This document shows positions 15,679 through 34,905 of a stretch of 64,000 nucleotides of DNA, one piece after another. The DNA comes from Candidatus Bathyarchaeota archaeon (GTDB lineage: Archaea; Thermoproteota; Bathyarchaeia; Bathyarchaeales; Bathycorpusculaceae): assembly GCA_963811105.1 (NCBI GenBank), contig CAWEPZ010000011.1, positions 128,001 to 192,000 of the forward strand. The letters are read 5' to 3'. A model generated the notes under the pieces. It was given only the letters and a program-made list of their open reading frames with translations. It was not told the DNA's origin and made no database searches. How positions within the stretch are numbered: position 1 is the stretch's first letter; each line of letters opens with the position of its first letter. The position numbers were made by a program, and so were the translations under genes.

Positions 15679-15770
15679 GGATCCGACCCCCAATTTACCA
15701 ACGAAAATAGTGAAGTAATAAATCAAAGATATTGAATAAACGTTGTAGGTTATAATCCCAGCGACCCCAC
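15679..15770. repeat. tRNA-3'-end-derived intergenic element, copy 1
   Basis: ggatccgacccccaatttaccaacgaaaat (inverted T-arm plus arm) ... taaatcaaa ... ggttataatcccagcgaccccac (T-loop plus acceptor 3' strand). Confidence 0.65.
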
Positions 15771-15858
15771 TTTACCCACTTCTTACTCGTTCTTGAATTG
15801 ATATAAAGACTCTCGAGCAATAGTAGCTTGAATAAAAAGGGGAAAATATTTCTTCTAT

Positions 15859-16414
15859 CTAAATTCTCGTGATGAGGTCTTTTGCCCAGTTTCGAATTGC
15901 ATTCCAGTCTCTTGTATCGTAGTTTCCGTTTGTCTCCTTGAACCCTGCCGCTTCCAGTTGCTGCTTGGCCATTGGCTTAGCTTTTCCTGCCCACCAAGGC
16001 CATTTATCGAAGTCATAGACGCCGCCAAACAAGCCTAAGGCAACGGGTTGTAGGTTGTACTTTACGGCTTTTTCCTGAAGATACTTCTTTTTGGCCTGTT
16101 TCGACTTCTTCAGGTTTTCCCTCACGCTCAGCTATTGCTTGTGCACCAGCCGAAACAAAGATGGCTATCTTCCTTGCCTTCAACTCCTTCTGGAATTTCT
16201 TCAGAAAGTCTTCCGGTTCGCCTGTCCACCTGAAAATTTGGATTCCACTACCGACAATTACAAGATCGTATTCTGAGATGTCTTTGACTTTTTCCTCTTT
16301 AGCATTGACCACTCGGACTTCAAGGCCTTCTTTTCTCAATATTGAAGCGATTTCCAGGGATGTGCTGGCTGTAGCTCCGTATCTTGTGCCGTAAACAATC
16401 AAAGCTTTGTCCAA
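15859..16414 (-). CDS. Flavodoxin-domain protein (HemG-like; frameshift near 16100)
   Basis: IVYGTRYGAT, YDLVIVGSGI; second frame LFGGVYD...YDTRDWNAIRNWA. Confidence 0.85.
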
Positions 16415-16812
16415 TAGTCAACGCCTCCACTTTTTGCTCCCTTGAAATTGAGCACTATCGCGATTACTCCTGCTGCAATCCCGAACAATGGCGGAACTAT
16501 GCCTCCACCGACAAGAAGCATTCCGACTGTAAGCAAAATAAGAACTAAACCACCGCGTTTTCTTGAAATGAATTTGGCAGCCCAAACTGCTAGCAAAACA
16601 CCGATGATTATTGTTAATATGCCAGTTACCAGAAGGTTTGGAATAATAGTCATCGCAGGTTCACCACCTAACGCTGTCAAGCTGGGCCAAGCTTTAAACA
16701 CAATATTGCTCGGAGCCACATTACCCTGAAGCATTGCGCCAGGTCCATGAGATGCACCACTGAGTCCCGTGAAAATACCAAGAGCTGAGGCTGCAACCTT
16801 AAGTTTATTCAT
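16399..16812 (-). CDS. Small integral membrane protein (~4 TM)
   Basis: Hydrophobic helices; overlaps its neighbours in an operon. Confidence 0.75.
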   Translation of the reverse strand: MNKLKVAASALGIFTGLSGASHGPGAMLQGNVAPSNIVFKAWPSLTALGGEPAMTIIPNLLVTGILTIIIGVLLAVWAAKFISRKRGGLVLILLTVGMLLVGGGIVPPLFGIAAGVIAIVLNFKGAKSGGVDYWTKL

Positions 16813-17099
16813 GCTTTCACCGCCATTTGCTTTTGTTCAGATGTTTTCTTGATATCGTCTACTCCAAGGTCAAGCCGAAGAACACCGTTTTTTCCCACAA
16901 CCTCCAAAACAACACCTTCCGCAAACGATGCTTGCAATAGTTCACCTATTGTACCCTCGATAAGGACGCTGTCGCTAGAGCCGTTGGTCAAGGTTACGTT
17001 CTTAAGACTATTTTTAGACTTGAGCTCCACAGAGAATACACGTTCTTTGTCACTTTTGCTATACATTTTGATTTTCCTCAGCAATCTTGAAGTCGCCAA
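16809..17099 (-). CDS. Hypothetical protein
   Basis: FSVELKSK...VLIEGTIGEL...GVLRLDL; first gene of the operon divergent from the regulator. Confidence 0.7.
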   Translation of the reverse strand: MATSRLLRKIKMYSKSDKERVFSVELKSKNSLKNVTLTNGSSDSVLIEGTIGELLQASFAEGVVLEVVGKNGVLRLDLGVDDIKKTSEQKQMAVKA

Positions 17100-17174
17100 A
17101 TGTGATTAGTTTTATTTGACGAAGACGCTAAGAAGTAAGTATCAGTGTGAAAACCTTAGCACCGGTGTTAAGAA

Positions 17175-17921
17175 ATGGAGAATGATTCAGGAGTAGAAAA
17201 GTTGTTTTTTGAACTCGCAAGTGAAACCAGGCTTGACATATTGCGGGAACTAAAGAACGAAAATCTGAAAATGCAGGAAATCGCGCGCCGATTAGATGTG
17301 ACTGCAACAGAAGCTTTCAGGCAACTGGAACGTTTGAGCAATGCGCTGCTCGTTCAGAGACAGCCTAATGGTACATTTGCCCTCGCTGAGTATGGCAAAC
17401 TGGTGCTTCAACTTTCATCTTCCATAGAGTTTGCCTCCAAGCACAAAGAATACTTCTCAACGCATGACATAACTCGGCTTCCCACCCAATTTGTGAACAG
17501 GTTAGGCGAGTTGGGGCAAGCGAACTTGATCATGGATACTGTTGAGACCTTGAACAAGGCTCAGCGGGCGTTTATAGAAGCTGAGGAATATGGCTGGGGA
17601 ATAGCAGAGGGCACCATCCCCGAACAGATGGGACCAATAATGGATGAAGTTATCCGGAATGGTGTAAAACTCCGCTTTCTCATTCCCGAAACTCGGCTTC
17701 CAACCAGTTCAAGCCTGCCTCCATCAGTGAAGAACGTGGAAATGAGAGGTCTCTTAGATCTTCCCGCAATAGTTGTTCTCACTAAAAAAGAAGGAGCTGT
17801 TTGTTTTCGTCAAGTTGGAGGAAGAGTGGATTATGCGGGCTTTTTCGGAAAAGATCCAGCGTTCCTCAATTGGGTTAAAGATCTGTTCCTTTACTATTGG
17901 GATGAAGGAAAACGAGCTTAA
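17175..17921 (+). CDS. ArsR-type winged-helix transcriptional regulator with C-terminal effector domain
   Basis: LASETRLDIL...MQEIARRL HTH; C-terminus WVKDLFLYYW typical of archaeal DUF1724-like regulators. Confidence 0.82.
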   Translation: MENDSGVEKLFFELASETRLDILRELKNENLKMQEIARRLDVTATEAFRQLERLSNALLVQRQPNGTFALAEYGKLVLQLSSSIEFASKHKEYFSTHDITRLPTQFVNRLGELGQANLIMDTVETLNKAQRAFIEAEEYGWGIAEGTIPEQMGPIMDEVIRNGVKLRFLIPETRLPTSSSLPPSVKNVEMRGLLDLPAIVVLTKKEGAVCFRQVGGRVDYAGFFGKDPAFLNWVKDLFLYYWDEGKRA

Positions 17922-18152
17922 CTCACTGAAAGTGTTTCCGGTACTTGAACTAATTCGGTCTACGACCCGCAGCCCAACTCTTTGCTCCCAACCAAAGTAA
18001 ACCTGCGGTAAACCATTTCATTTGAATTATGTGTCGTTTTTGTGCGTAAACGTCCGCCATAAAACTAGAATTTCAAACATTTAATGTTTATATCTTAAGA
18101 TACAATATACATGTGTTATAGACAAGATAATACATAAGGAATGAGTTAGCAC

Positions 18153-18416
18153 ATGGAGTTTACAAGCAGCAAACAAAAAGTGTGGGTCAGTAGAATTTCT
18201 AATGTTTTCCATAATTCTAAAACGAATCAGTCCCTTGAAGAGAAGTATGCAGTTGTAATTGATTATAATGTTGACAAACAAGCATCACCTAACAACCAGA
18301 AAACACATACTTCAAATGAGTGGAACAATCTCCAAGAAGGTTTGAAGTATCAAAACGAAGTTGAGCGAAAAAGAGGAATAGCCGAAGCCTACCGATTCTT
18401 AACACCACCAAAATAA
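18153..18416 (+). CDS. Hypothetical protein
   Basis: ATG-started 87-aa ORF after gagt SD-like sequence; no recognisable domain. Confidence 0.5.
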   Translation: MEFTSSKQKVWVSRISNVFHNSKTNQSLEEKYAVVIDYNVDKQASPNNQKTHTSNEWNNLQEGLKYQNEVERKRGIAEAYRFLTPPK

Positions 18417-18663
18417 AGGCTCAAAGCGTTCATTCCACTGAACAATAAAATTGTCTCTCCATTGAATGGGGCGTTGATGATCCTTTGTCTTTTCAGAATT
18501 TGGACGGCTCGGCTGGAAAAGAAGCAATCATAGCGTCATAAGGCACAATGTGTTTGATAAGCAACAATATTTAGGCAGAATAAACACAATTGAGCCCGTT
18601 ACTTATTATTGCGATGTTAAAATCGTGAAAACCTTAAATCTTACATTATGTCTTACATAACGT

Positions 18664-18888
18664 ATGACAATGAAGACAGTAAGCGTAAGAATATCTGAAG
18701 AAGAAAAGCGCCAACTAAAGAAGTATGGTAAACTATCAGATACACTTAGGGAAGGCATGAAACTCTACCTAAACAAAAAGAAATCCGATGAGTTGCTATG
18801 CAAACTGGAAAAACTACAATCCGAAAGCAAAATAAAAACCTCAATTGAGGAAGAAGTGAAACTGATTCGAGAGGATAGAGAACGCTGA
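18664..18888 (+). CDS. vapB: RHH-type antitoxin
   Basis: MKTVSVRISEE RHH motif; ends LIREDRER as in archaeal VapB; TATA-like cttaaat upstream. Confidence 0.82.
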   Translation: MTMKTVSVRISEEEKRQLKKYGKLSDTLREGMKLYLNKKKSDELLCKLEKLQSESKIKTSIEEEVKLIREDRER

Positions 18889-19268
18889 TAGTTGCCGACA
18901 GCAGCTACATAGTTGAAGGCCTCCTTAAGAATAGGGAACTACTTGCGGTTGAACAGATTGTGGCTCCTGAGTTAGTTGTCTATGAAGTTGCAAACGCTAT
19001 TTGGAAGCATGAACATCTTTTGAAAGACGTAGAAAACGGTAAACAATACTTATCAATTTTCTATGGTCTAATAGAAGCTGGAAAAATAAAGATCCTAACC
19101 CCAAACGAAGAGTTGATGCAGGAATCATATTCAATCGCAAAAAGGCAAGAAATTGCGGTATACGACGCAGTTTTCGTTTCTTTGGCAAATAAATTAGGAT
19201 TAACCTTAAAAAGTTATGACAGAGTTCAAATTCGAGCTCTAAAATCTGAGAATAACCGCCGTCGATAA
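18885..19268 (+). CDS. vapC: PIN-domain toxin VapC (probable CTG start overlapping the antitoxin stop)
   Basis: In-frame extension upstream of 18960 reads (L)IVADSSYIVEG, supplying the first PIN Asp; then YEVANAIWK, AVYDAVFV, SYD. Confidence 0.85.
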   Translation: MIVADSSYIVEGLLKNRELLAVEQIVAPELVVYEVANAIWKHEHLLKDVENGKQYLSIFYGLIEAGKIKILTPNEELMQESYSIAKRQEIAVYDAVFVSLANKLGLTLKSYDRVQIRALKSENNRRR

Positions 19269-19535
19269 CTTAGCACCGTAGAGCGCTAACAGTCCAAGGC
19301 GTATTAAAAGTCTCAGAATCAGGAAACGGACTAGTCAGCGGCACTCAGAAAACGAACTAATAGTAAACAAAGAAAGACAACTGCAACCATAGCGAAAGTA
19401 AAATCAACTGAAGTAGAGCCGCTCTATCTCCGTTGAGGGAGCAAAATAAGAACAAGTCCCCAAGGGATATATGAATAAACCAGAATTATTCTAATTTAGT
19501 CATAATAACATCAAAGATAGCTCTAATTTGTAAAT

Positions 19536-19638
19536 TGGCGCCGGGAGGAGGGGCCCAGCACCTTTTTACCAGTAAAATTGTCTAAATCAAATTTTTTGTA
19601 TCCCAAAACATTATGAGTTCAAATCTCAACTGCCCCAC
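19536..19638. repeat. tRNA-3'-end-derived intergenic element, copy 2
   Basis: tggcgccgggagg (reverse complement ...CTCCCGGCGCCA) + ccagcacctttttaccagtaaaattgtctaaatcaaattttttgtat + tgagttcaaatctcaactgccccac. Confidence 0.75.
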
Positions 19639-19693
19639 TTTTCACACATTTTTAATAAGAAAACCCAATATTACCTTAAACTATCAAAAATTC

Positions 19694-19783
19694 ATGAGAA
19701 GCGAACGCTCTAGAATCACCATTCAACGATACAAAAATTCTTTATTACTGATAAATTGGAGTTCGAATCGCACTCCGGCATCA
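19694..19783. repeat. tRNA-3'-end-derived intergenic element, copy 3 (inverted relative to copy 2)
   Basis: gatacaaaaatt...ttactgataaattggagttcgaatcgcactccggcatca resembles the reverse complement of copy 2. Confidence 0.6.
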
Positions 19784-19791
19784 CAGTAATC

Positions 19792-20874
19792 TTATTTTGT
19801 GATTGATACCGACATTTCCATAAATCTGCTGTAATGTTTTGCTGCTGAAGCAATTGAACTTCTTTGTGTTGGGGTTAATGTCTTAAACAGGCTGAGCATA
19901 ATGACTATGTTGCTTTTCTTGAACGTACGCTTCCATGTTCCCACTACTTTGCCATCAATGATAATTGTGGGGTAGAAGATGCCGTTGTTGGATACTGCCT
20001 TCTTAAAATGAGGCTGTTCAATTGCAGCGGTTCGGTCGCTGTAGCCGAGGATATACTCATCGAAAGCTGGCAAAAGAAACGCCGTTGCTAACTCTTTTCC
20101 ATTTTCGGGCGTACTTTGGGGCATCCAATATCTTTTGCCTTCGATTGTTTCTGACATGAGCCGAGAAGACGCTGCTTCCAAAGCTATCTTCGCATCGGAC
20201 AGCTTCAACCCTGACCACCAAGCGAAATCCTCAAGCAACGCTGGACCCCGGCTTGAAAAGTAACAACGCGCAAGTTCACTCAACGCTTCTCCCTGTTGCA
20301 TACTCTTGCCTTTTGGTACATATTGATTTAGCAAAGCGAAAGTCTGCTCCTTGCCCTTTTGTGAACCAAAACAAATCAGCCCTTTCAGAGCTGCTCGCCA
20401 AAGAATATGGTAGCCCCGTTGGCCCTTGGGAGAAATACCTCCTTTTTCCAATACCTTAAACATTTCATCTCGAGTCAATTGCCCATTTTGCAGGGCTTCA
20501 ACAAATAGTTCCTCGGCCCGCATAAAAGTTGCCTCATCCAATTTCAGCTGACGGTGGCGTCCAGCCCTACTTGCAATAATTTGTGGCCCTAACAGCTCTA
20601 GCATCCAACGAACATCAGGGGCTGCTACGAAATGCAATGTGCCCCGTAACAGCCAAATTCGGACGATTGCCCTGTTAGTTATCGCTGATTCCACCTCTGG
20701 TAAAGTTACTTCTTTGGCGCGGAGACCAATAGCCCAGAGTGCCGCTTGATAATCTTGAGCCTGCATGGCGCCAAGCGAAGCGACAACTTCGCCGGGTTCT
20801 TCGGTAGCTGAATAAGCAATCTGGTGATTAATCAACCGAAGCTTGGCGACATCTTCGAGGTTCATGCCTATCAA
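19792..20874 (-). CDS. AlkZ-like (HTH_42) DNA glycosylase
   Basis: LGAMQAQD (QxQ motif), WLLRGTLH, GPA..EDFAWWSG, LLPAFDEYILGY, DGKVVGTW. Confidence 0.85.
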   Translation of the reverse strand: MIGMNLEDVAKLRLINHQIAYSATEEPGEVVASLGAMQAQDYQAALWAIGLRAKEVTLPEVESAITNRAIVRIWLLRGTLHFVAAPDVRWMLELLGPQIIASRAGRHRQLKLDEATFMRAEELFVEALQNGQLTRDEMFKVLEKGGISPKGQRGYHILWRAALKGLICFGSQKGKEQTFALLNQYVPKGKSMQQGEALSELARCYFSSRGPALLEDFAWWSGLKLSDAKIALEAASSRLMSETIEGKRYWMPQSTPENGKELATAFLLPAFDEYILGYSDRTAAIEQPHFKKAVSNNGIFYPTIIIDGKVVGTWKRTFKKSNIVIMLSLFKTLTPTQRSSIASAAKHYSRFMEMSVSITK

Positions 20875-21188
20875 TAAACTATTTGTCTGCTCTTTTTAAT
20901 AAAATAGCAGCTCGTCGAATTGGGAATTGAAAAAACAAGTTACTCCAAGAAATTTTTGGCTGTAATCATCAATTGAAATGATGCACTTAATTATTTAAGC
21001 GAATCCTGAATATTTCCTTCGCGATAAGTGAGCCGGACAGATCGTACCCCAACTTGTAGGTTTGGCCGTTAAATTCATGCTGCATGATTTTTTCCTCTGT
21101 TCTTTTTCTGCCGAAAGGTAAAAACACCGAAATTTGATAGCTTCATCCAAAGATTTGTCTATTTTTCTCAACATCCACTAATTTCTCA

Positions 21189-21857
21189 TTATTTAACTTG
21201 TGTTCCTGAGCTAGAAGGTTGCCACTTTTTCAGAAAAATTTGTGCTTCCTCTCTCAGGGAAGTTCTTGAACTGTTAATGTATTTTTGGGCAAACGCGACG
21301 ATTTGCTTTTTAGCTTCGATGTGGTCGAAAATGGTGTCAAAAGTTTTGATGGTGTGTTCTGCTATGACGAGTTTGCATTCCTCGGTTAAATGCGGTGTCA
21401 CTTTGAGGTTTTGCACTTTCAGCAGTTGTGCAGTTATCCTTTGAGTAAGATGGGGTTTGGCTAACGCAATTTTTGCTGAATTGATCACGACATTAGCCAC
21501 GGTAACCATGTACTCGTTGCTTAGGAGACTGTAGTATGTATCAAATATTGCGTCAAACTTGTGTTCCTTGTCAACTCTGGTCAGGTTTGCAATTATTGCC
21601 ATAGCATTCCAAGTTAGAATTCGGTGCTTACTGCCAAGGAGCTCAATAAAGGTGTCCATGTAAGGATAGAGTTTCTCTGGGTATTTCTCGCTTAAATCCA
21701 TCAATACTTTTCCGCAGCCATATCTAACCGTTGCATTAGACGAAGAAGTACCTTCCAACAATTTAGGAAGCAAATCAAAATCCGATTCAACCTTCTGAAA
21801 CAGTTGGGTTTTTGTGATTTCTTTGCTTTCAAGTTTCTTCAATAGATCATTTTCCAC
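21189..21857 (-). CDS. HEAT/ARM-repeat helical protein
   Basis: Repeated amphipathic helices (SNATVRYGCGKVL, HRILTWNAMAII). Confidence 0.7.
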   Translation of the reverse strand: MENDLLKKLESKEITKTQLFQKVESDFDLLPKLLEGTSSSNATVRYGCGKVLMDLSEKYPEKLYPYMDTFIELLGSKHRILTWNAMAIIANLTRVDKEHKFDAIFDTYYSLLSNEYMVTVANVVINSAKIALAKPHLTQRITAQLLKVQNLKVTPHLTEECKLVIAEHTIKTFDTIFDHIEAKKQIVAFAQKYINSSRTSLREEAQIFLKKWQPSSSGTQVK

Positions 21858-21933
21858 ACTTATCCCTCAAACCATAAATAACCTCAGTGATCTAAGAAGA
21901 GTTCTGTTTTTTCGACAAGATTAATAGACTTTT

Positions 21934-22411
21934 TTAGCCATTCACTATTTGCTGCAACACTGTTTTCGTCGAGCAGAAGCCATATCGATTATAGAAAGGC
22001 AAAGCCTGTTCGTTTCCAACTCCAACCTCAACTATTTTGGCTACTGCACCCTTTTTGTCCATCCAAGTCAGAGCCTTTTTCATAAGGCTATCCCCAATGC
22101 CCAACCCTCTATAATTGGATGCAACGATATGGATTCAATTTCACCTGTTCTTTCCTCATCAACGCTGCTTACACAGTATCCAACGTTTTGCCCTGTCACA
22201 ATATCCATGGCAACATCAACTCTCAACACGCCATTTGCGGTTTTTTTAGCGAAGCAGCCTTTCTTTTTCCAAAACTCATTTCAGCGTAATACTGTCTAAA
22301 ATGCAGGGATAAATCAAAATGATGCTGATTCAAGCCTTCCCAAAGCAACCTAATACTATTTAGAAGATTTTCATTTTCAGAAAAGTACTGTATTTGCGGC
22401 TTATTCTGCAT
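21934..22411 (-). CDS. GNAT acetyltransferase (frameshift near 22250)
   Basis: N-terminal IRLLWEGLNQHH; second frame GYCVSSV..GEIESI...YRGLGIGD.LMKKAL.W...GNEQALPFYNRYGF. Confidence 0.8.
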
Positions 22412-22706
22412 GTTTTCACTTACACGCCATCCATCATTTCAACGATCTTTGCATAAAAACATATAGAACTTTGTTTGGTAATTCAAAAAGCCCAAATGGC
22501 AAGATTTCACCACCACCTCCTTTTTTTACCAAAAATTCTGCAACGCGGGATTTGCAAATCTTTCATTACAGTATTTGACAGATCAGAGAAGCCACAAGTA
22601 GAACTTCTGGGAAACGGTATTTCAAGCACGCCCTCAGTCATACGTTTCAGTAGCTATCCCCAAAATCTTAAATATGTAGATAAACTAAACTTATTTTAGT
22701 GATTTT

Positions 22707-22991
22707 ATGTCAAAACCAACTGAACCTATCAAAAAGAAAGAACTCGTCGGTATTCCAGAATACTTAGTCAAATTAGGTAGTTACATTGAGATCGGTCCTC
22801 ATGGCCGGATTCCCCTTAACTACGTCATACAGATAGACTTGGCTAAAGATAGGGCTGTCATTGACCGAATCAAAGGCGACCCCCAGTTTGCAGAGAGATT
22901 TACGGTGTCAGCTATAACTCCGCTGAAGCTCGGCGACATAGAGAAGATGAAGACTGGAACCGTCGCCATAACACTGAAGACAAAGGGATAG
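22707..22991 (+). CDS. Small hypothetical protein upstream of radical SAM enzyme (candidate substrate/partner)
   Basis: 94 aa, ATG start after gtgat SD and TATA-like cttaaata; co-oriented with the rSAM gene. Confidence 0.7.
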   Translation: MSKPTEPIKKKELVGIPEYLVKLGSYIEIGPHGRIPLNYVIQIDLAKDRAVIDRIKGDPQFAERFTVSAITPLKLGDIEKMKTGTVAITLKTKG

Positions 22992-23062
22992 ACTATAGTG
23001 CGGCAACGTGCCGCTTTTTCTATTTTTTGTTCCTCCATCAATTAACTTTACAGGAGAGCCAG

Positions 23063-24169: not shown

Positions 24170-24208
24170 TCGCTCCGAGTTGCCTCGAAGCGCGCACTGT
24201 CAAAATCA

Positions 24209-24244
24209 AGGGAGAATCCTATCCCAACTCACCAGTAAAAAAAT
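24209..24244. repeat. Degenerate partial copy of the tRNA-derived element
   Basis: gggagaatcctatcccaactcaccagtaaaa resembles the consensus GGGATTCGAACCCCAATTTACCAGTAAAA. Confidence 0.45.
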
Positions 24245-24423
24245 GCTGAAATTGAGAACTAAAAATCTCGCTGTTTTCGTCTGGGATTCTACAAGGAAAG
24301 AGCAAATCGAGAACTAACAACTGAGCCTTTGTGTGCTTTTAGGAAAAGCTAATATGACATTATTGCAAATGGTTTTCTAATTTACGTGCGTACATTCGGA
24401 GCTGAAAAAGCATTAACAAGTAT

Positions 24424-25987: not shown

Positions 25988-28900
25988 ATGAGCAAAAGCA
26001 ATGCTCGCCGAGAAGCAAAATCTCAAGCAATTGAGACAACTTCTCCTATAATGATCGATTCAGCAGCTGTTGACAAAGAGAATTCGTTGCATATTTTACA
26101 CGTTGATGATGACCTTTGCCTTCTGGAAGTTTCAAAACAGATACTCACAATCGAGAACAATTTTGAGATCGATAATGCTACATCCGTTGATGAAGCCTTC
26201 AAAAAAATGGAACAGCAGACTTATGATGCGGTAGTTTCCGACTATGAAATGCCTCAGAAAAATGGATTAGAATTTTTAAAAGAGCTTAGAGAGCAAAAGA
26301 GGGGCATTCCTTTTATTTTGTTTACGGGGAAAGGCAGAGAAGACGTTGCAGTAAAAGCTTTGAATTTGGGCGCTGACAGTTACATCAACAAGAACGGTTC
26401 TCCAGAAACAGTTTACTGCGAATTGGCAGATGCCATAAACAAGACTGTGGAACGCAAGAAATCAATAGAACTGCTTGCTGCGTCAGAGTCAAAGTATCGT
26501 GCACTAGTTGAGAATTCACTTCAAGGAATATCAATTCTGCAAGCAACTCCGCTTAGGCTGGTTTTTGCTAACGAAGCTATGGGAAAATTGTTGGGCTATT
26601 CTTCTCAAGAGTTAATGTCGCTTTCGCCTGAAGGAATTATGGGTTTGGTTTATCATGAGGACAGGGCAGCTTTCTTTGGGCGTATGGAAAACCGTTTGCG
26701 GGGTGAACCAGCGGGAGCGTGCTACGAGTTTCGTGGAGTGCGAAAGGACGGCTCGATAATTTGGATGAGTGCACTCGCTAATCGAGTTGATTATGAAGGG
26801 CAACCTGCAGTCCAAGGCATGTTCTTAGATATTAATGAGAGCAAGAAGACCGAAGAGATTCTGCGTGAAAGCGAGGCGAGGTACAGAGAACTGGCAAATT
26901 CTTTGCCGGATATCGTTTTTGAGACTGACAAAAATGGGGAATTGATATTTGCTAATGAGAGGGCTGCCAAACTTTCGGGTTATTCTCAGGGGGAGCTTGA
27001 AAATGGGTTGAATATCATGCAGTTCCTTCTCCCTGAAGACAGAGAAAAAGCAATGAAAAACATTCAGCGCTTACTATCCGGAGGCAACTATGCCCCTGCT
27101 GAGTACACCTTCGTGCGGAAAAACGGAACCACTTTCCCAGCACTGATCACAGTAATCTCTTGTATATCCAAAAACAAGGTGACAGGCCTCAGAGGCTTAG
27201 TCTTAGATATTACTGAACGCAAGAAAACGGAGCAGAGGCTGGAAAAAGAGCAGCAGGAACTTAACCGCATTATCGATTCTTCTCCAATCATAATTTTCTA
27301 TAAAGATGCAGAAGGAAAATTCATACGTGTCAATGAAGCATTTGCTGAAGCGCAGAAAATCCCTAAAGAAAAGTTTTTTGGGAAAACAGTTTTTGACTTT
27401 TACTCCGCTGAGATTGCGCGGGGAATGGCAAACGACGACTTAGAAGTTTTAAGATCAGGGCGTCCCAGATTTGGCATAATAGAGCAATATGAATCCGCAA
27501 GCGGCATGAGGTGGGTGCAGACAGATAAGGTTCCTACTTTTGACAACAATGGCGTTGCAACTGGTCTTGTGGGCTTTGCTCAGGACATCACTGAGCGCAA
27601 GAAAGCTGAGGAGGTTTTGCGAGTGAGTGAAGAGAACTTCCGTTCATTAATTGATTCAATGGATGATTTAGTTTTTGTTTTGGGCTTTGATGGGATCTTC
27701 AAGAACTATCACCAGCCTTCACATAAAAAAGACCTTTACATCCCGCCAGAGAAATTTGTTGGGAAGCATTTCATGAACGTGCTTCCACCACAAGTGGCTG
27801 AATTATGTCATGCTGCTATGGAAAGAATTGAAGACTCTGGAGAGATTCAAGAATTTGATTACCCTCTGGAAATGAACGGTGAGCAGTCATGGCATAATGC
27901 TAGACTTTCGCCAACAAAAGACCAGTCGGGACGGAATACTTCAGTTACGGTTGTGGTTCGCAACATAACTGAACGCAAGAAAGCTGACCTGGCTCTGCTT
28001 GAGAGCGAAGGGCGACTTAGGACGATATTTGAAGGGGCATCTGATGGCATTCTTGTTGTTGATCCTAAGACAAAGAGGTTCGTTTTTGCTAATCCCAGAA
28101 TTTGTGAAATAACGGGTTATTCATTAAAAGAATTACTGAATCTGAATGTGAATGCCCTTCACCCTAAGAAAGATTTGTCTTATGCAACTGACCAATTGAC
28201 AAAGCAAGCACAGGGAAAAATAACTCTTGCACTAGATATTCCAGTTCTAAGAAAAGATAGAAAAGTTGTTTATTGCGACATTAATTCCAGGCTTGCAAAA
28301 ATTGGGGAACAAGAATATTTGGTAGGCTTCTTTAGAGATATCACCGAACGCAAGCGAATCGAGAAGTCGTTAAAAGAGTCAGAAGAGAGATTAAAGAGTA
28401 TTATTGAAAACTCAAGCGACCAGATATTCATGTTAGATAGGGACTGCAGATTCTTATTAGCTAATAAGAGCGCGGCAGATCTTTTCGGGAAATCTCCTCA
28501 AGAGATGGTCGGCAGGTCAATACCTGAGGTATTCCCGGAAATAATTGCAGCCCAATTCTCGAAAAATATCAAGAATGTATTTGGTACCGGCAAGAGCATG
28601 TTTATAGATGAAAAAATGGTTGCCAAAGGTCGTGAATTGTACACCAGTACCAGCCTAAATCCTGTCAGAAATGATAGCGGAAGAGTGATAGCAGTCACAG
28701 GGAGTCTAAGAGACATTACTGAGCGCAAGAACGCCGAAGAAAAACTGGCAAGTTTGAAAGAATTCGATGAAAGAATAATAGATTCACTCGAGGATGCCCT
28801 ATTAGTAATTGACCCCGACGACTATAAAATAATTAGTACCAATGAAGTGGCGTTTAAACAATTAAAGCTCAGAAAAGAAGAACTAATTGGAAAAACCTGC

Positions 28901-30577
28901 TATCAAATAACTCATCACTTATCTGCACCATGCCAATCTCCAGAACATGACTGCCCAATTCGGAGGGTGCTAGAAACCAAAGAAATCATAACGGTTGAAC
29001 ATAAGCACTTTGATGAAAACAATAATGAACGAATTGTGGAAGTTTCAGCTCGCCTTGTCAAAAACCCCGAAGGAAAAACAGTGGTAATTCACGTTGCCAG
29101 AGACATTACAGAAAGAAAACAGATGGAAACCAGGATTCGCGAAGCTGAAAGAAGATACCGGGCATTGTTTGATCAGGCACCAGTTGGTATTCTAGTTTTT
29201 GACGCTGAAACTGAAGTACTTGTAGATTTCAATGAGGTAGCTCATCAAGAATTAGGCTATTCCAGAGAAGAATTCGCGAAACTACACGTCTTTGATTACA
29301 AAGCAGTTGAAACGCCAGATGAAACGAGAGCTAGAATAGAAAAGGTCCTTCAAGAAGGCAGAGATGAATTTGAAACCAAACACCGAACCAAAAACGGTGA
29401 GGTTAGAGATGTCATAGTTACTTCTCAGGCGATTGAATGGTCTGGAAAAAAACTCGTCCTCAGCATCTACCGAGACGTAACGGAAGCCAAGAAAATTGAG
29501 ATTGCATTGATGGAAAGCGAAGCGAAGTATCGACAGTTAATTGAACTCGCCCAAGAAGGTGTTTGGGCATTAAATACCGATAGTCGCACTATTTTTGTTA
29601 ATCCACGCATGGCAAACATGCTAGGATACAGTGAAAGTGAAATGATTGGAAAAAATTTGGCTTCTTTCACGGATAATCCCGACTCTAATTTTGCTGTGCA
29701 CAATTTGGAAGAATGCAAACTAGGCAACCAGGGGCAATGCGAATTTGAGTTCACTCAAAAAGACGGCGCCCACATATATGCCAATATTGCAGCTTCATCC
29801 ATCAAAGATGACACGGGAAACAGCATTGGAACACTTGCAATGGTTGCAGACACCACTGAACGCAAGAAGATAGAAATAAATTTGAAAGAAAGCCACGACC
29901 GACTCGAAATGATGAACGAGAAGCTGCGTGTGGTGGGAAGCCTCACTAGGCACGATGTACGCAATAAGCTTTCCGCTGTGACTGGTTACGCGTATATTCT
30001 CAAGAAGAAGCATGCGGACCAAGCGGACATTTTTGATGGGTTGGTCAAGATGGAGCAGGCTGTTAAGGAAATTGTGAAGATTTTTGACTTCGCTAAAATG
30101 TATGAACAACTGGGCGTTGAAACGTTAAGCTATGTTGAAGTGGAGCGGGCTGTAGCTGAGGCAGTGGTTCTTTTCTCAGGGTTGACTTTCAGAGTCATTA
30201 ATGAATGTCAGGGCCTTACTGTGTTGGCTGATTCATTTCTAAGTCAGCTATTCTTCAATTTTATCGATAACACACAAAAATACGGCAAGAAAACTACCGC
30301 AATAAGAGTATACTTTGAGAAAGCCGAGCAGAATAAGCTTAGGCTGATTTATGAAGATGATGGGGTAGGAATTTCCGCAGAGGATAAGCTGAACCTTTTC
30401 AAAGAAGGCTTCAGCACTGGGGGCAGTACTGGATTTGGCTTGTTTTTGTCAAAGAAGATGATGAATGTTTACGGCTGGGAAATCCAAGAAATTGGCGAAC
30501 CGAGCAAAGGCGCAAAATTTGCAATAACCATTCCTAGAATTAATCAAAGCGGAAAAGAGAACTTTCGAATTGCATAA
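25988..30577 (+). CDS. Hybrid sensor histidine kinase: REC + 9 PAS/PAC + HisKA + HATPase_c
   Basis: ILHVDDD...SDYEMP..GL (REC); nine units ending D/N-I/V/T-T/N-E-x-K; TRHDVRN H-box; NFIDN, DDGVG, GFGL. Confidence 0.93.
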   Translation: MSKSNARREAKSQAIETTSPIMIDSAAVDKENSLHILHVDDDLCLLEVSKQILTIENNFEIDNATSVDEAFKKMEQQTYDAVVSDYEMPQKNGLEFLKELREQKRGIPFILFTGKGREDVAVKALNLGADSYINKNGSPETVYCELADAINKTVERKKSIELLAASESKYRALVENSLQGISILQATPLRLVFANEAMGKLLGYSSQELMSLSPEGIMGLVYHEDRAAFFGRMENRLRGEPAGACYEFRGVRKDGSIIWMSALANRVDYEGQPAVQGMFLDINESKKTEEILRESEARYRELANSLPDIVFETDKNGELIFANERAAKLSGYSQGELENGLNIMQFLLPEDREKAMKNIQRLLSGGNYAPAEYTFVRKNGTTFPALITVISCISKNKVTGLRGLVLDITERKKTEQRLEKEQQELNRIIDSSPIIIFYKDAEGKFIRVNEAFAEAQKIPKEKFFGKTVFDFYSAEIARGMANDDLEVLRSGRPRFGIIEQYESASGMRWVQTDKVPTFDNNGVATGLVGFAQDITERKKAEEVLRVSEENFRSLIDSMDDLVFVLGFDGIFKNYHQPSHKKDLYIPPEKFVGKHFMNVLPPQVAELCHAAMERIEDSGEIQEFDYPLEMNGEQSWHNARLSPTKDQSGRNTSVTVVVRNITERKKADLALLESEGRLRTIFEGASDGILVVDPKTKRFVFANPRICEITGYSLKELLNLNVNALHPKKDLSYATDQLTKQAQGKITLALDIPVLRKDRKVVYCDINSRLAKIGEQEYLVGFFRDITERKRIEKSLKESEERLKSIIENSSDQIFMLDRDCRFLLANKSAADLFGKSPQEMVGRSIPEVFPEIIAAQFSKNIKNVFGTGKSMFIDEKMVAKGRELYTSTSLNPVRNDSGRVIAVTGSLRDITERKNAEEKLASLKEFDERIIDSLEDALLVIDPDDYKIISTNEVAFKQLKLRKEELIGKTCYQITHHLSAPCQSPEHDCPIRRVLETKEIITVEHKHFDENNNERIVEVSARLVKNPEGKTVVIHVARDITERKQMETRIREAERRYRALFDQAPVGILVFDAETEVLVDFNEVAHQELGYSREEFAKLHVFDYKAVETPDETRARIEKVLQEGRDEFETKHRTKNGEVRDVIVTSQAIEWSGKKLVLSIYRDVTEAKKIEIALMESEAKYRQLIELAQEGVWALNTDSRTIFVNPRMANMLGYSESEMIGKNLASFTDNPDSNFAVHNLEECKLGNQGQCEFEFTQKDGAHIYANIAASSIKDDTGNSIGTLAMVADTTERKKIEINLKESHDRLEMMNEKLRVVGSLTRHDVRNKLSAVTGYAYILKKKHADQADIFDGLVKMEQAVKEIVKIFDFAKMYEQLGVETLSYVEVERAVAEAVVLFSGLTFRVINECQGLTVLADSFLSQLFFNFIDNTQKYGKKTTAIRVYFEKAEQNKLRLIYEDDGVGISAEDKLNLFKEGFSTGGSTGFGLFLSKKMMNVYGWEIQEIGEPSKGAKFAITIPRINQSGKENFRIA

Positions 30578-30580
30578 ATA

Positions 30581-30606
30581 AACCTCATGGCCATGCCATT
30601 GAGGTT
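30581..30606 (+). terminator. Stem-loop just after the kinase stop
   Basis: aacctcatgg-ccatg-ccattgaggtt imperfect inverted repeat. Confidence 0.35.
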
Positions 30607-30856
30607 CGTCCCAAACACCAACAAAACTGGTAAGTGTCCAATGCCAACCTGTCTTTTCCGCAGCATATTTACTGACTCTTTTTGAAGAGTCAAACATCGT
30701 GGTTTCAAAAAGTGAGCAACAACCTAAGTAGCCCACCAAGCGTGTTTTTTTACTAGTAAAATTTTCCATTACTTTCCGTGGGATTCAGAGGCACAGGCAA
30801 ATAAACTATAATCACGACTATTTTGCCAAAATAGCATTAATTACAGCTTTAAAAAA

Positions 30857-30920
30857 TTCCGCCGAGAAAGGGATCCAGCACCTTTTTACCAATAAAATTA
30901 TGTAAATCAAATTTTTGTAT
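30857..30920. repeat. tRNA-derived element, copy 5 (near-identical core to copy 2)
   Basis: ccagcacctttttaccaataaaattatgtaaatcaaatttttgtat differs from 19555-19601 by 3 substitutions and 1 indel; preceded by cgccgagaaagggat (reverse complement ATCCCTTTCTCGGCG). Confidence 0.8.
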
Positions 30921-31069
30921 ACTTATTGATTGCATAAAAAATCACCACAAAAACAAACGTTAACCAACTACTAAAGTTGTTTTCGTTAATGCCTCATAGA
31001 AGCTTGGTGCCTTCTGCTTGCTAATTGAGATGTTTCTCTCAAAAAGCATGCCTGTACAGTCTTTATAAA

Positions 31070-31450
31070 TTAAGAATATTTGGAACTATTTTTTCCGGTT
31101 TGGTTTTCCTTAACTCTAAACTTTACAATTTCATTTATCAAATCTAGTGGCATTGGCTTGTCCAATGGGAATTTGACGGTGCCCTGGACTTTGCTTACTT
31201 CATAGCCTGACAGTTTTTCTTTGAATTCCTCGATGGCCGACTCCCGCGGATAGAAACCGATGTGATTCTTGAATGCTCCAAACCATACCAAGTTGCCATT
31301 CAGTTTGAACGCTGGCATGTTGTAGCTAATTGCTTCTTCTGCTTTGGGTGCAGCGTCCTTAATTGCTTGCCTTATTTGTTCTAAAACAGTTTGAACATTC
31401 TTGGGAAAAGAACCGATGTAATCATCAATCGACTCAAAATTCTTTTTCAT
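31070..31450 (-). CDS. DUF1801/YdhG-like protein
   Basis: IDDYI..FP...EAISYNMPAF...FGAFKNHIGFYP...GTVKFPLDKPMP. Confidence 0.88.
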   Translation of the reverse strand: MKKNFESIDDYIGSFPKNVQTVLEQIRQAIKDAAPKAEEAISYNMPAFKLNGNLVWFGAFKNHIGFYPRESAIEEFKEKLSGYEVSKVQGTVKFPLDKPMPLDLINEIVKFRVKENQTGKNSSKYS

Positions 31451-31667
31451 AGACTAAAAACACCAAGAGACTATTTGCAGAGCTTTTCCTAATAACTTTT
31501 CGCCTAGCATCTATTTCCAAATATGACTAGTTCGATTTATGCCTCACAGAAATCTATTTATCAGCAGCCATTTGCAATTGTACAATAGCGATTACCGTCG
31601 GACCCGTATTGTTCACGCTTTACAGAAGCATTTTTTCTCTTCTAATTAGCCTAGCAATCGATGACCT

Positions 31668-32399
31668 TTATTTCCACTTGGTCAGGATCTCTTCTCGTTT
31701 GAAAGTAGATTTGCTCAAGAAGAATAGAACTACGTCAGCGATCAAAACAACGCCAGAAATGATCAGAAGGTTACTGATACTGAAGGTAAAAATTCCTTCT
31801 GCTCCTGCAAAAAAGACAGCAACGAACGGAATAAACATGAGGCCAGCGATCTGGTTTGCACCCCGAACGTCGCTTACTCGCGATGATGCAATCACCGCTA
31901 CCTCAATACTAAGAACTGCTGCAAGAGGAGCGAGGATTAACAGCATAACGCCAGCGTTCCAGTTGGGAAAATAATAGTAGCCTAACCCCCCGTTGTATAA
32001 TATATAGTCCGTTGCTAGCATGAAGATTGATGCTCCTATCCATGTGGATAGAATAGGCGGTATGAACGATGCGATGCTTTTTCCGAGGAGAATCTCGCCA
32101 TCCGTTGTCGGGGTTGCAAGCAACGGTTCCAATGTCTTTTCAACTTTTTCACCCACTATGCTGTACGCTGCAATCGTACTGGGGAGAACAGTTGCTAAAA
32201 CAACGAAGATGTAAATGATTGATTCGGCACCTATCGATATTGTAGTGGGGATCCCAGAGGCTATTTGGTCCTTGACGACGATTGAGAAAACAATTGCGAT
32301 GAGAAGGGGAAGCCCAACAGTATAGAAGATTATGCTTCTCTTTCTGCTGATTACCTTCAGCTCTTTACGCGCTATCTTCCATGGCATCCAGGTAGTCAT
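31668..32399 (-). CDS. ABC-2 type transporter permease
   Basis: IARKELK, SIVGEKVEKTLEPLLATP, EILLGK; 6 TM helices. Confidence 0.9.
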   Translation of the reverse strand: MTTWMPWKIARKELKVISRKRSIIFYTVGLPLLIAIVFSIVVKDQIASGIPTTISIGAESIIYIFVVLATVLPSTIAAYSIVGEKVEKTLEPLLATPTTDGEILLGKSIASFIPPILSTWIGASIFMLATDYILYNGGLGYYYFPNWNAGVMLLILAPLAAVLSIEVAVIASSRVSDVRGANQIAGLMFIPFVAVFFAGAEGIFTFSISNLLIISGVVLIADVVLFFLSKSTFKREEILTKWK

Positions 32400-33322
32400 T
32401 GTATGTTCTCCTTAACTAGTTTCAGGTAAGCTTCTTCTAGCGAGCTGCTAGTCACTGTCACTGTCTCGATGCGTCCTCCCACTGCTACGATTGCGTTTAT
32501 CATGTCAGGATTCTCCTCTTCCGGATTCTCGCTGTCAATCGTCAGCTGGTTGCCCTCTCTGACCACGTTCTTGACCTGTAGCTTCTTTAGCGAATCAAGA
32601 ATCGCTTCATTCACCTGTCTCAACTGGATCACCGTTTTCCTTCCGTGGATCGACCGTTCGAGTTCTTCAGGGGTGCCTACTGCCGTCAGCCGGGTATTCA
32701 AGATGCCAATTCTATCGCAGATTCTCTGTGCTTCGTCGAGATTGTGTGTATTTAGGAAAATTGTTTTTTTCTGCTTTTTCAGGGCAAGAATAAACTCCCT
32801 AACCGTCTTCGCTGATTCAGGATCTAAATTAGCTGTAGGCTCATCCATAAACAGGATTTCAGGATCATGTACCAAAGCACGTGCGATCGCGAGTTTCTGC
32901 TTCATACCTTTAGAAAAAGTTCCAGCTAAAGCGTCCTTCTTCTCCCAGAGTCCAAGCAACTTTAGGAAGTACTCGTTGCTCTCTTTCCGCTGAGAGTCAG
33001 TCCTTCTATATAGAGTTCCGTAGTAATCCAAGTTCTCATATGCAGTTAAAGACTCGTAGAGTCCCACGTTATCTGGGACGAGACCGATGATCTTTCTAAT
33101 CTTCAGAGCATTTTCTTCGTTGCCAATCTCATAACCACCAATCCTAGCGCTGCCGCTAGTCTTGGATATAAGGCAGCAAAGCATTCTCACCGTCGTAGTC
33201 TTTCCTGCGCCGTTAGGTCCGAGTAGGCCAAAGACTTCACCTTCATCTACGCGAAGGGTTAGATTATCAACCGCAGCTAAGCTACCGAACTTTCTCGTAA
33301 GTCTCTCGGTCTCAATCATCAT
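32396..33322 (-). CDS. ABC transporter ATP-binding protein
   Basis: GPNGAGKTT, FSKGMKQK, MDEPT, H-loop. Confidence 0.95.
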   Translation of the reverse strand: MMIETERLTRKFGSLAAVDNLTLRVDEGEVFGLLGPNGAGKTTTVRMLCCLISKTSGSARIGGYEIGNEENALKIRKIIGLVPDNVGLYESLTAYENLDYYGTLYRRTDSQRKESNEYFLKLLGLWEKKDALAGTFSKGMKQKLAIARALVHDPEILFMDEPTANLDPESAKTVREFILALKKQKKTIFLNTHNLDEAQRICDRIGILNTRLTAVGTPEELERSIHGRKTVIQLRQVNEAILDSLKKLQVKNVVREGNQLTIDSENPEEENPDMINAIVAVGGRIETVTVTSSSLEEAYLKLVKENIQ

Positions 33323-33751
33323 TTCAATCCGTCACGATTAAGCTTCAATTCTTCTATTAAGAAGCACTCAATCACGTTGGACTAATCTAAACCAATGATT
33401 AAGGCTAATAGCTTTTCCTCAAAGAAAAAAAATATAATATTGATGTTATTAAAAATTTGAGAAAAAGAGGGGTTTGGGACAAAAGTCCTTTGAGCTGTTT
33501 TCTTCATTCACCCTTTGATTGACTGTTAGGTGAAGGAAGATATTTTTTTGCAATCTAGAATCACCCGAAAAAAGACTATGATAACCTTATAACTAGCTTT
33601 GTGCAGTGGAAATAATCTCGGGCACAGAAACGAGTCATGGTTTGTGCCGATATACCCATTGCGCACTCCTCCGACAGATTAGCCCTTAACATCTGCATTA
33701 ACGATTCTTTAAAATAGCAGTTTCAATAACAATAAATTAGGTGTCGTTTTC

Positions 33752-34702
33752 ATGAGCCTTTATTCCTTTGAGGGTACATTGAAACCTCTTGCCCCTTTTG
33801 ACTTTTCCAAATCTCTCGAATTCCTATCTGATTTCAGTCCAACGAAAAATGAACAAGATGTAAAAATCGGATCTTTCACAAAAGCCGTCCAAGCAAAAGG
33901 CAAAACAATCGCATTTGAAGTAACCGACAAGGGAACCATTGAAAACCCAAAGCTACAATTCACAGCATACTCAGAAGCAAAGTTCACTGACGAAGTCAAA
34001 GATATGGTTACTGACCGGATAAGCTTCTTTCTAAGTCTCCAAGATAACCTAAAAGAATTCTATGAATTAGCAAGAAAAGACGAGTGCTTACATCCTGCAA
34101 TCAAGCAGTTTTATGGTCACAAACAAGTAAAGTTCTTGACGCCTTTTGAAATTGCATGCTGGGCAGTTCTAAACCAAAGAATACCTATGAATGTGGCTCG
34201 CAAAATGAAAGAAAATATTGTCAAGAATGTGGGCGGTAAAATTAAAGTCAAAGGAGTTGAATATTATTCTTTTCCTGAGCCGTCTCATCTGGTGGCTGCA
34301 TCTTCCGAGTTGCCTGAGATGGTGCCAAATAAGAGAAAAGTAGAGTACATATCATCTGTGGCGGAAGCGTTCTGCACAGTTGATGAAAAATGGCTTAGAG
34401 AGGCGTCATATGATGAGGTTCATGATTGGTTAACGGATATCAAGGGTATTGGAGATTGGTCAGCTAACTTTGTGATGATACGGGGATTGGGAAGAATGGA
34501 GGAACTGTCAAGCGTAGAACCGCGGCTTGTTTTAGATGTCGCCAAGATTTATGCCGGTAAAGATAAACAAATGAACAAAGAAGAGGTGTGCCAGATAGCC
34601 GAGAAATACGGTAAATGGAAAGGGTATTGGGCCTATTACGTCAGAATATATGCAGAATTCGCATATGTTTTTGATAGGGGAAAAATGCTTTTAATGAAGT
34701 GA
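33752..34702 (+). CDS. alkA: DNA-3-methyladenine glycosylase II (HhH-GPD family)
   Basis: TPFE...AVLNQRI, FPEP, LTDIKGIGDWSA HhH motif, WKGYWAYY. Confidence 0.85.
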   Translation: MSLYSFEGTLKPLAPFDFSKSLEFLSDFSPTKNEQDVKIGSFTKAVQAKGKTIAFEVTDKGTIENPKLQFTAYSEAKFTDEVKDMVTDRISFFLSLQDNLKEFYELARKDECLHPAIKQFYGHKQVKFLTPFEIACWAVLNQRIPMNVARKMKENIVKNVGGKIKVKGVEYYSFPEPSHLVAASSELPEMVPNKRKVEYISSVAEAFCTVDEKWLREASYDEVHDWLTDIKGIGDWSANFVMIRGLGRMEELSSVEPRLVLDVAKIYAGKDKQMNKEEVCQIAEKYGKWKGYWAYYVRIYAEFAYVFDRGKMLLMK

Positions 34703-34798
34703 ATCGAAAAAGGTGCCAGACGAAGTTCGCAAACTCACCCATGCTATATTGACTACCAGTTCTGTTGTTTCGCAAATAAATCAGGAACATTTCAAGTG

Positions 34799-34840
34799 TT
34801 TATGCCCGTAAATGGGAGTTTGAATCCCTTCCCAACACCA
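34799..34840 (+). repeat. tRNA-derived element, partial copy ending in CCA
   Basis: tttatgcccgtaaatgggagtttgaatcccttcccaacacca: degenerate arm, T-arm and acceptor strand. Confidence 0.6.
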
Positions 34841-34905
34841 ATAAATTTCTAGTCGAAGAAAACTGTCTTCAAAAAAGAGCAAAAAACAAGCCGTCATCTA
34901 ATACT

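Follow-up and report, generated by a model that had tools for sequence, protein, structure and literature searches.

The DNA analysed here, referred to as the window, is a 64-kb stretch (C11:128001–192000) of a genome from an archaeon of the Bathyarchaeia, designated G000, which comprises 3.49 Mb in 15 contigs with a G+C content of 41%. Contigs of this genome carry C-numbers and relatives, taken from 40 congeneric genomes, carry G-numbers; positions without a contig name are those of the window. Between 15.6 and 34.9 kb lies an accessory island, in which gene modules are separated by copies of a short recurrent unit composed of tRNA 3'-end fragments and a palindrome. For characterization of this unit, a sequence-only model (R1) was trained on 18 G000 copies, among them the window copies at 15666, 19534, 19732 (minus strand), 25746 and 30856, and the 64 kb were scanned with filters off. 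Nine matches were obtained at E < 0.1, every one within 15666–34842 and five of them training copies. The matches independent of training lay at 34808–34842 (E = 0.0024), at 30746–30766 on both strands (E = 0.027 and 0.046) and, weakly, at 24212–24251 (E = 0.066). Five copies can be regarded as solid (15.66, 19.53, 19.73, inverted, 25.74 and 30.85 kb) and three as weak (24.21, 30.75 and 34.81 kb).

A repeat search of 14000–36000 returned family D3 (25 nt, four copies at 19557, 25763, 30741 and 30877), family D4 (48 nt, 90% identity, 19549 and 30869), family D5 (47 nt, 70% identity, 15738 and 19606) and family D19 (24 nt, 79% identity, 15674 and 25751). At up to two mismatches, TTTTACCAGTAAAA was found five times in the window, whereas 200 shuffles gave 0.56 matches on average and never more than 3. 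A preliminary description of this stretch had set out a recurrent element of ~100 bp, and that architecture was confirmed in the sequence at the positions first given. From palindrome centre to second T-loop the three full copies measure 49, 46 and 52 nt; the arm-to-second-T-loop values of 55, 52 and 58 nt reported earlier differ by definition only.

To assign the tRNA-like ends, 12 window fragments were compared with the 3' ends of the 43 tRNAs called by ARAGORN in G000, using 200 shuffles for each fragment. Eight fragments gave p ≤ 0.025, beating at least 97.5% of their shuffles, two gave p = 0.075, and two failed (the left part of the inverted unit, p = 0.34, and the piece at 24.2 kb, p = 0.95). 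Best matches of the left arms were to tRNA-Ser of GGA or CGA type, and those of the right arms to tRNA-Pro(GGG); two tRNAs therefore explain the fragments, in place of the several from which the ends had been supposed to derive. A genome-wide search identified the reverse-complemented left arm, in which palindrome TTTTACTGGTAAAA is followed by the T-arm and then by TCCCGGCGCCA, as a tRNA-Ser 3' end. The copy-to-copy differences among the ends are the product of decay. When 22 nt of flank are included, the Pro-like relic of unit C, described below, can be aligned to a displaced piece of tRNA-Pro(GGG) at C11:657158, scoring 31 where no shuffle exceeded 24; no palindrome was present in the arm of displaced tRNA-Pro(GGG) fragments. 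The only tRNA gene of the window is a tRNA-Pro(CGG) on the minus strand at 62435–62512. The ARAGORN set of 43 is small for the genome, lacking tRNA-Tyr among others, and some intron-bearing tRNA genes were probably overlooked.

The individual units could then be laid out along the island. Unit A (15664–15772, minus strand, E = 3.8e-7) contains a decayed, reverse-complemented tRNA-Ser T-arm at about 15675–15693 (p = 0.075), followed by the palindrome-like AATTTACCAACGAAAAT (15692–15708), a spacer containing TAAATCAAA and, in plus sense, a tRNA-Pro(GGG)-like 3' relic at 15746–15771 that matches its tRNA at 19/23 positions (p < 0.005). Unit B (19535–19638, minus strand, E = 1e-9) retains a reverse-complemented tRNA-Ser(GGA)-type 3' end complete with CCA (19535–19562; 15/16 to tRNA-Ser(GGA), p = 0.005), the palindrome TTTTTACCAGTAAAA (19563–19577), a spacer and a Pro-like relic in plus sense (19614–19638). 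The inverted unit, Binv (19694–19783, plus strand; E = 0.028, and 1.5e-8 with R1, for which it served as a training copy), carries the palindrome-like TTATTACTGATAAATT at 19742–19757 and a Ser-like 3' end at 19758–19783 (p = 0.01), its far arm having no significant tRNA match; its arm stands opposite that of unit B, with zero cargo in between. The doubtful partial unit on the minus strand at 24212–24251 offers a T-arm-like stretch and CACCAGTAAAA.

Unit C (25740–25849, minus strand, E = 5.5e-10) comprises the T-arm-like GGGGATTCTAGCCCC (25754–25768), with its acceptor part decayed, the palindrome-like AATTTAATAGTAAAATT (25769–25785), a spacer and a Pro(GGG)-like relic in plus sense (25824–25849; 23/28 to tRNA-Pro(GGG)). 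An extra T-arm fragment at 25703–25719 (plus strand), which is Ser(CGA)-like (p = 0.025), converges on it. At 30748–30761 a bare palindrome, TTTTACTAGTAAAA, stands without tRNA fragment and accounts for the R1 matches on two strands there. Unit D (30857–30920, minus strand, E = 5.7e-6) has a decayed, reverse-complemented Ser 3' end (30857–30882, p = 0.015), the palindrome TTTTTACCAATAAAA (30883–30897) and a spacer sharing 90% identity with the one in unit B; a Pro relic is absent. Unit E (34799–34840, plus strand), inverted relative to units A–D, joins the palindrome-like TTTATGCCCGTAAAT to a 3' end that resembles tRNA-Ser(CGA) and retains CCA (17/19, p < 0.005).

Elsewhere in the genome the same fragments could be followed back to an intact gene. 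Downstream of the tRNA-Ser(CGA) gene of G000 (C11:1292051–1292174), its last 27 nt recur as three direct copies at 1296377, 1298583 and 1301886, with 96–100% identity. In all three, identity with the tRNA starts at the first G of the T-stem; upstream, TTACTAGTAAATT occupies the place of the tRNA body, such that a palindrome precedes each copy. Within ~40 nt of the third copy a broken tyrosine recombinase was found on the opposite strand (C11:1301951–1302605), reading toward the core, and a second broken one has the same layout at C1:113887–114236; both Ser-type integrase copies of G000 are thus broken. An intact version is encoded in G039, where an integrase of 424 aa (PF00589, E = 6e-18) lies 36 nt behind tRNA-Ser(CGA) and reads toward the tRNA. 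It has a weak Zn-ribbon match at its N-terminus, and the C11 remnant is 70–82% identical to it across three aligned pieces. No Pfam match was obtained for the genes beside it. The order of tRNA-Ser followed by this integrase is repeated in G008, G013 and G062, and the gene ends ~36–60 nt short of the core. The tyrosine recombinase for which the preliminary description had proposed to look beside the element is broken next to two G000 units, intact behind tRNA-Ser in G039 and absent from the window.

Displaced fragments also accompany the G000 tRNA genes for Thr(GGT), Pro(GGG) and Gly. The downstream flanks of tRNA-Gly(TCC) at C2:90495 and tRNA-Thr(GGT) at C11:1099845 share a different conserved stretch of ~60 nt, suggesting a second family of integrative elements with an arm of its own. 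At C11:1381.78–1381.83 kb a reverse-strand tRNA-like 3' end with anticodon-arm-like sequence, uncalled by ARAGORN, stands beside a weak copy of the unit.

When read in the sense of tRNA-Ser, the unit runs from the reverse-complemented Pro-like 3' end through ~45 nt of alignable spacer and the palindrome into the Ser core, and many copies of this form occur in G000, G038, G032 and G016, its interior varying between subfamilies. On the other side of the core two types of flank were distinguished. The first, seen at five loci in as many genomes, encodes the C-terminus of the integrase; the second is a ~55-nt consensus common to modules that have no integrase, which is also seen behind the real tRNA-Ser genes of G000 with CGA, GGA and GCT anticodons. 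The figure of ~100 bp given earlier falls short, since the full conserved junction, once the flank beyond the Ser fragment is counted, extends over ~190 nt and aligns between species. This would be the size of an attachment site of attP type with its arms, and in the same four genomes conserved, attP-like arms frame a core that is identical to the end of the tRNA.

Across G000, R1 gave 21 matches, one being the real tRNA-Ser(CGA) gene and the remaining 20 non-tRNA copies. These are not evenly spread: 12 of the 20 fall into three arrays amounting to ~1% of the genome, namely the window (5), C13:172–185 kb (4) and the tRNA-Ser(CGA) array (3), so that the copies cluster in islands, as a profile scan of the genome had been expected to reveal. 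At E ≤ 0.01, R1 matched 27 of the 40 relatives; among the matches listed, one extends over the palindrome in 21 of these, and in the other 6 the tRNA part only is covered, these being real tRNA-Ser genes. About half of the 40 genomes carry the unit in arrays. Co-oriented arrays were seen in G038 (C155, a real tRNA-Ser and three units), G032 (C55, four units) and G010 (C4, four units), and the array on C6 of G016 has 7 to 8 units over 50 kb (seven unit matches and one weak partial). Thirteen island loci from five genomes, totalling 209 kb, contained 38 nhmmer matches, three of which are real tRNA-Ser genes. A tblastn search of these loci with the intact integrase recovered only the two G000 remnants, leaving 33 of the 35 non-tRNA units without an integrase remnant in the same locus. 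In five relatives no PF00589 match was found less than 2 kb from an R1 match, the nearest being 5 kb away.

The modules of the window are 1.5–5 kb in size and hold several genes on both strands. Module 1 (15773–19534) encodes a frameshifted flavodoxin (15859–16414), a 137-aa membrane protein, a 96-aa open reading frame (ORF), an ArsR/MarR-type HTH regulator (17175–17921), an 87-aa ORF and an RHH-like antitoxin with a PIN toxin (18664–19268). Paralogues of the 96-aa ORF and the regulator stand as a pair next to a unit on C13, and likewise in G016. DNA of the toxin–antitoxin pair is 92% identical to a locus in G011, far above the genus background. The flavodoxin-like gene, on the minus strand, is split into two overlapping frames (15859–16125 and 16013–16414), the second alone giving a Pfam match; one public contig (run X9) is one base short at 16098 within it, and the break may be a strain frameshift or an assembly error. 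Module 2 (19784–24211) contains an AlkZ-like DNA glycosylase (19792–20874), a 222-aa ORF, three small ORFs and a radical SAM protein (23027–24169), a type of protein represented more than once among the window cargo.

To the left of unit C, 25247–25699 is made up of two adjoining short segments that are multi-copy in G000. The first (25247–25423) is 91% identical to C11:225643–225820, and the second (25423–25699) is 70–77% identical to C11:556052 and to C11:654238, near tRNA-Pro(GGG); both are present in many relatives, with a common breakpoint at 25422/25423. A 108-aa ORF there (25359–25685) has no Pfam match and an odd composition; it looks non-coding and was not taken as a gene.

Module 4 (25988–30577, plus strand) is a single hybrid sensor kinase of 1529 aa, with a receiver domain, ~9 PAS domains and an HATPase domain, and with internal tandem-like repeats of ~375 nt (families D1 and D2). 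Paralogues of this kinase are the commonest cargo common to the islands (13 ORFs in one cluster). Module 5 (30921–34798) encodes a DUF1801 protein (31070–31450), an ABC-2 permease with an ABC ATPase (31668–33322) and a 316-aa ORF to which no family was assigned; paralogues of the module adjoin units at C9:139.9–144.3 kb and C11:564–568.3 kb. In G038 the cargo includes cupin, DinB, SDR, OYE, MBL-fold, TrmB and Rieske proteins, and a NikR/ZnuA/ABC module is held by both G000 and G038. The cargo of the islands is ordinary accessory metabolism and regulation.

Module boundaries fall at the unit in the two cases that could be tested. Window 25756–26856 and C13:174439–175538 form a 90% paralogy that begins inside the T-arm of unit C, the sequences on the other side being different, and the Znu/NikR module has units at its bounds in both G000 and G038 (83.8% identity over 3.1 kb). 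Between these two genomes, the core flank that lies upstream of the tRNA shows 79.9% identity. After the tRNA, the Znu module comes first in G000 and third in G038, in which two additional integrase-less modules lie nearer the tRNA. This order fits newer arrivals displacing older ones outward, and also fits a deletion between direct repeats in G000. A less decisive case is the AlkZ segment (19785–21008), 92.6% identical to C9:141864–143088: the homology begins within 7 nt of the end of the Binv Ser fragment, which is also the end of the gene, and at C9 it stops at the gene boundary with the unit absent.

Other routes of duplication may have contributed. A 487-aa DDE transposase (DUF772 and DDE_Tnp_1_6) adjoins a unit at C11:566.6–568.1 kb (L013:6605–8068) and at C9:144.6–146.0 kb (L011:9573–11036). 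Both loci carry paralogues of window modules (AlkZ, DUF1801, ABC transporter), which indicates that insertion sequence (IS)-mediated or segmental duplication also moved modules.

At the level of the whole island no synteny breakpoint could be obtained, and the expectation that boundaries would fall at the element is borne out for the two modules above. No examined relative has both island flanks adjacent, the genus being too diverged (65–83% DNA identity) and too rearranged to supply an empty site. Against G005, the left core block ends at 14844, where G005 continues with genes that G000 has at C11:369–372 kb, and the right blocks resume at ~42.4 kb. In public sequencing data, 20 runs from 11 studies contain at most 0.32 of the sampled words, and short contigs from four runs were compared with 15001–35000. 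One contig spans unit A (15443–15814) and one spans unit E (34577–34974). Another, at a depth of 2, omits 18445–19503, that is, the toxin–antitoxin pair, ending 30 nt before unit B. No unit-to-unit joint was seen in the short contigs of these four runs, which was counted neither for nor against mobility.

From these results we consider it probable that the repeats are att-junction scars of integrative elements that target tRNA-Ser, and that the island is a fossil, rearranged array of such elements. Direct observation covers the tRNA identity of the fragments, the arrays that follow real tRNA-Ser genes, the integrase beside the core and the genus-wide conservation of the unit; that an integrase of the G039 type made the junctions, with crossover in the T-arm region and the palindrome as a putative protein-binding arm site, is what we infer from these observations. 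Elements of this kind would dock into the tRNA-Ser 3' end, from T-arm to CCA, by means of the tyrosine integrase, and the recurrent element would be the attP-type or attR-type junction left by docking. In tRNA sense, such a junction would begin with a conserved element arm bearing a fossil, reverse-oriented att fragment that resembles tRNA-Pro(GGG), followed by the spacer of ~45 nt, the palindrome TTTACYAGTAAA, the tRNA-Ser core of ~27 nt and the second conserved flank of ~55 nt. Serial integration at one tRNA would stack modules with junctions between them. In the window, the anchoring tRNA and any integrase would since have been lost, part of the array inverted and some cores decayed, so that at least five captured accessory modules would be preserved at 15.6–34.9 kb as a fossil stack. 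Because both Ser-type integrase copies of G000 are broken, the array is probably immobile there now.

Several findings weigh against this explanation. There is no tRNA-Ser gene inside the window, which makes the array there an orphan. Nor is there a trace of an integrase, in agreement with the preliminary description: PF00589, with 16 matches in G000, has none in the window, and the best tblastn match of the G039 integrase there reached only E = 0.041 across 24 residues. A contig that spans an integrase-bearing element from end to end and shows a palindrome arm was looked for without success; the G039 contig stops 4 kb past the integrase, and the integrase-bearing island of G062 has its distal Ser fragment 20 kb away, without the palindrome. 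The palindrome arm is therefore linked to modules without an integrase, and to the enzyme only in an indirect way. Unit orientations are mixed (B with Binv, the 25703–25719 fragment with C, and D with E), which simple serial integration would not yield, so later rearrangement must be assumed. In units A and C the acceptor part of the core is lost and the palindrome well kept, which is unexpected for a purely neutral scar, and a plain fossil would not account for a conserved flank specific to integrase-less modules. No direct recombination event was observed. Mixed orientations, palindrome conservation and the module-specific flank together leave room for a lineage of non-autonomous cassettes mobilised in trans.

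Such a lineage is the substance of the strongest alternative, in which the units would be complete attP sites of living, integrase-less cargo cassettes, excised, re-inserted and reordered in trans by a tRNA-Ser-specific tyrosine integrase encoded elsewhere, in the manner of cis-mobilisable elements (CIMEs), tycheposons or integrons. We regard it as unlikely. The same doubt attaches to its fuller form, in which cassettes would be moved in trans across the genus by the Zn-ribbon integrase at tRNA-Ser, a near-symmetric T-arm core would allow either orientation and hence the inverted units, and the Pro-like fragment would be an older second docking core; that the near-palindromic T-loop (TTCGAA) permits recombination in both orientations is speculation.

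The 33 of 35 units without an integrase remnant across the 13 loci would be expected of such cassettes, although archaeal elements are known to lose integrase genes after integration, as described in PMC8371274. The far-side flank of ~55 nt in integrase-less modules differs from the integrase-coding flank, suggesting a lineage that propagates without an integrase of its own, and the ~190-nt unit remains alignable between species whose tRNA-adjacent intergenic DNA no longer aligns; set against this, both Ser-type integrase copies in G000 are broken and many window cores are degenerate. Paralogous modules adjoin units at several loci, and G038 has its two additional integrase-less modules between the tRNA and the common Znu module, but deletion between direct repeats can also yield differences between arrays, and the Znu module itself is barely more conserved between G000 and G038 than the core flank, which fits vertical descent. 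The proposal of a tRNA-3'-based cassette system in the preliminary description is therefore retained in part. Recombination-site scars are supported by the arrays behind real tRNA-Ser genes, by adjoining integrases, by the clustering of copies in accessory islands and by the two module boundaries, whereas present-day shuffling in trans would be no more than a possibility, with both Ser-type integrase copies of G000 broken and several window copies having lost the acceptor part of the core.

It is far less probable that the unit of ~100–190 nt is itself a small tRNA-derived mobile element, similar to a miniature inverted-repeat transposable element (MITE) or a short interspersed element (SINE), which inserted between genes. 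Its two outward-facing tRNA-like ends do resemble imperfect terminal inverted repeats, it is present in many copies (20 non-tRNA in G000), and units B and Binv abut without cargo. Yet the Ser end reproduces exactly the final 27 nt of real tRNA-Ser genes, directly behind which the copies form co-oriented, direct-repeat arrays, and the Ser-like and Pro-like ends are alike merely as any two T-arms would be. The interior of the unit is variable between subfamilies, what is common being only ~45–190 nt of junction, and the copies are clustered, with 12 of 20 in three arrays. Neither a pair of empty and filled sites nor a target-site duplication was seen, the C9 AlkZ paralogue simply being without a unit. 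The MITE-like option raised at the outset was accordingly set aside in favour of att-junction scars.

That the fragments work as RNA genes, whether as halves of split or permuted tRNAs or as some other structured small RNA, is scarcely credible: T-arm-like hairpins, intergenic positions and an A/T-rich, promoter-like sequence in the spacer would suit it, but ARAGORN and Rfam (to E = 10) find no tRNA in 14–36 kb, Rfam places no other family on the units either there or in a scan of the window at gathering thresholds, complementary 5' halves are not evident, many copies have T-loops unlike those of tRNA (CTAGGAT, CTGGGAT), and RNAalifold on eight units from four genomes predicted only three pairs at −1.8 kcal/mol, upon which the structured-RNA reading was dropped. 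An integron was also considered as a candidate and rejected, there being no PF00589 match in the window, multi-gene modules on both strands and a unit without conserved fold.

To our knowledge, the mobile elements of Bathyarchaeia have barely been described. Integration scars at tRNA-Ser would account for the assembly of a 20-kb accessory island in an uncultured archaeon and for similar islands across its genus, and the signature of a tRNA-Ser tail with a palindrome can serve to mark the limits of flexible gene modules in genomes of Bathyarchaeia. If mobilisation in trans of the modules without an integrase were confirmed, a G039-type integrase and the unit would constitute a simple, testable archaeal pair for site-specific recombination, and in the fuller form of that reading archaea would have an economy of cassettes on a par with integrons or tycheposons.

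As regards systems already known, integron cassettes are typically single genes that are inserted by IntI at attI, bounded by folded attC sites and expressed from a cassette promoter. The island resembles them in that accessory genes are stacked between recurrent recombination sites, and differs in having no IntI-type integrase, attI or common promoter, in its multi-gene modules, and in a site that is derived from tRNA rather than being a folded attC hairpin. CIMEs of Streptococcus are cis-mobilisable and att-flanked and have no recombination genes; the modules here would likewise lie between att sites belonging to a resident integrase family, and have no recombinase of their own, but they belong to another domain of life and involve another integrase family.

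Among archaea, integrated elements are often without an integrase after integration, stand in tandem at one locus and exchange modules, according to PMC8371274; integrase loss and tandem integration would be features of the island too. Unlike SSV-type integrases, which split their own gene, the gene here, of a Bathyarchaeia lineage, ends ~36–60 nt before the core. In tycheposon-shaped islands of Prochlorococcus, as described in 10.1101/2020.12.28.424599, a few tRNAs serve as docks, at which newcomers push older elements deeper; nothing but a partial tRNA stands between neighbours, degenerate elements and pieces of integrase lie scattered through the islands along with extra partial tRNAs, and the cargo includes nutrient-uptake operons, zinc among them. 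These traits are encountered here as well, at the level of architecture only, in an archaeal host, with another integrase lineage and with no replication module seen.

A close parallel in layout is provided by the tandem islands of Islander, which consist of a tRNA gene (tDNA) and displaced fragments, with an attP of ~250 bp carrying a tDNA fragment and with crossover classes that include the T-loop/junction (PMC4383910). They match the present arrays in the 3' tDNA fragment at each island end, an attP with a copy of the tDNA end, arrays at one tRNA, an integrase beside the regenerated tRNA, as in G039, and an identity block that starts at the T-stem, as in the T-loop/junction class. A tRNA with a direct displaced 3' copy, by which Islander recognizes an island, is found in the tRNA-Ser(CGA) array of G000 and in G038. 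In Islander an integrase is required for each array member (PMC4383910), whereas nearly all members here are without one; the window array in addition is without an anchoring tRNA, and the junction adds an opposite-oriented fossil Pro fragment and a conserved palindrome. Among the papers listed by a search on integrases and tRNA integration in Bathyarchaeia, none describes arrays of this kind, as judged by titles and abstracts. By these comparisons the island would fall within the known kinds of tRNA-targeted integrative islands (Islander-type tandem, tycheposon-like and CIME-like), and what is particular to it is the fossil second tRNA fragment together with the palindrome in the arm, spread across a genus of Bathyarchaeia.

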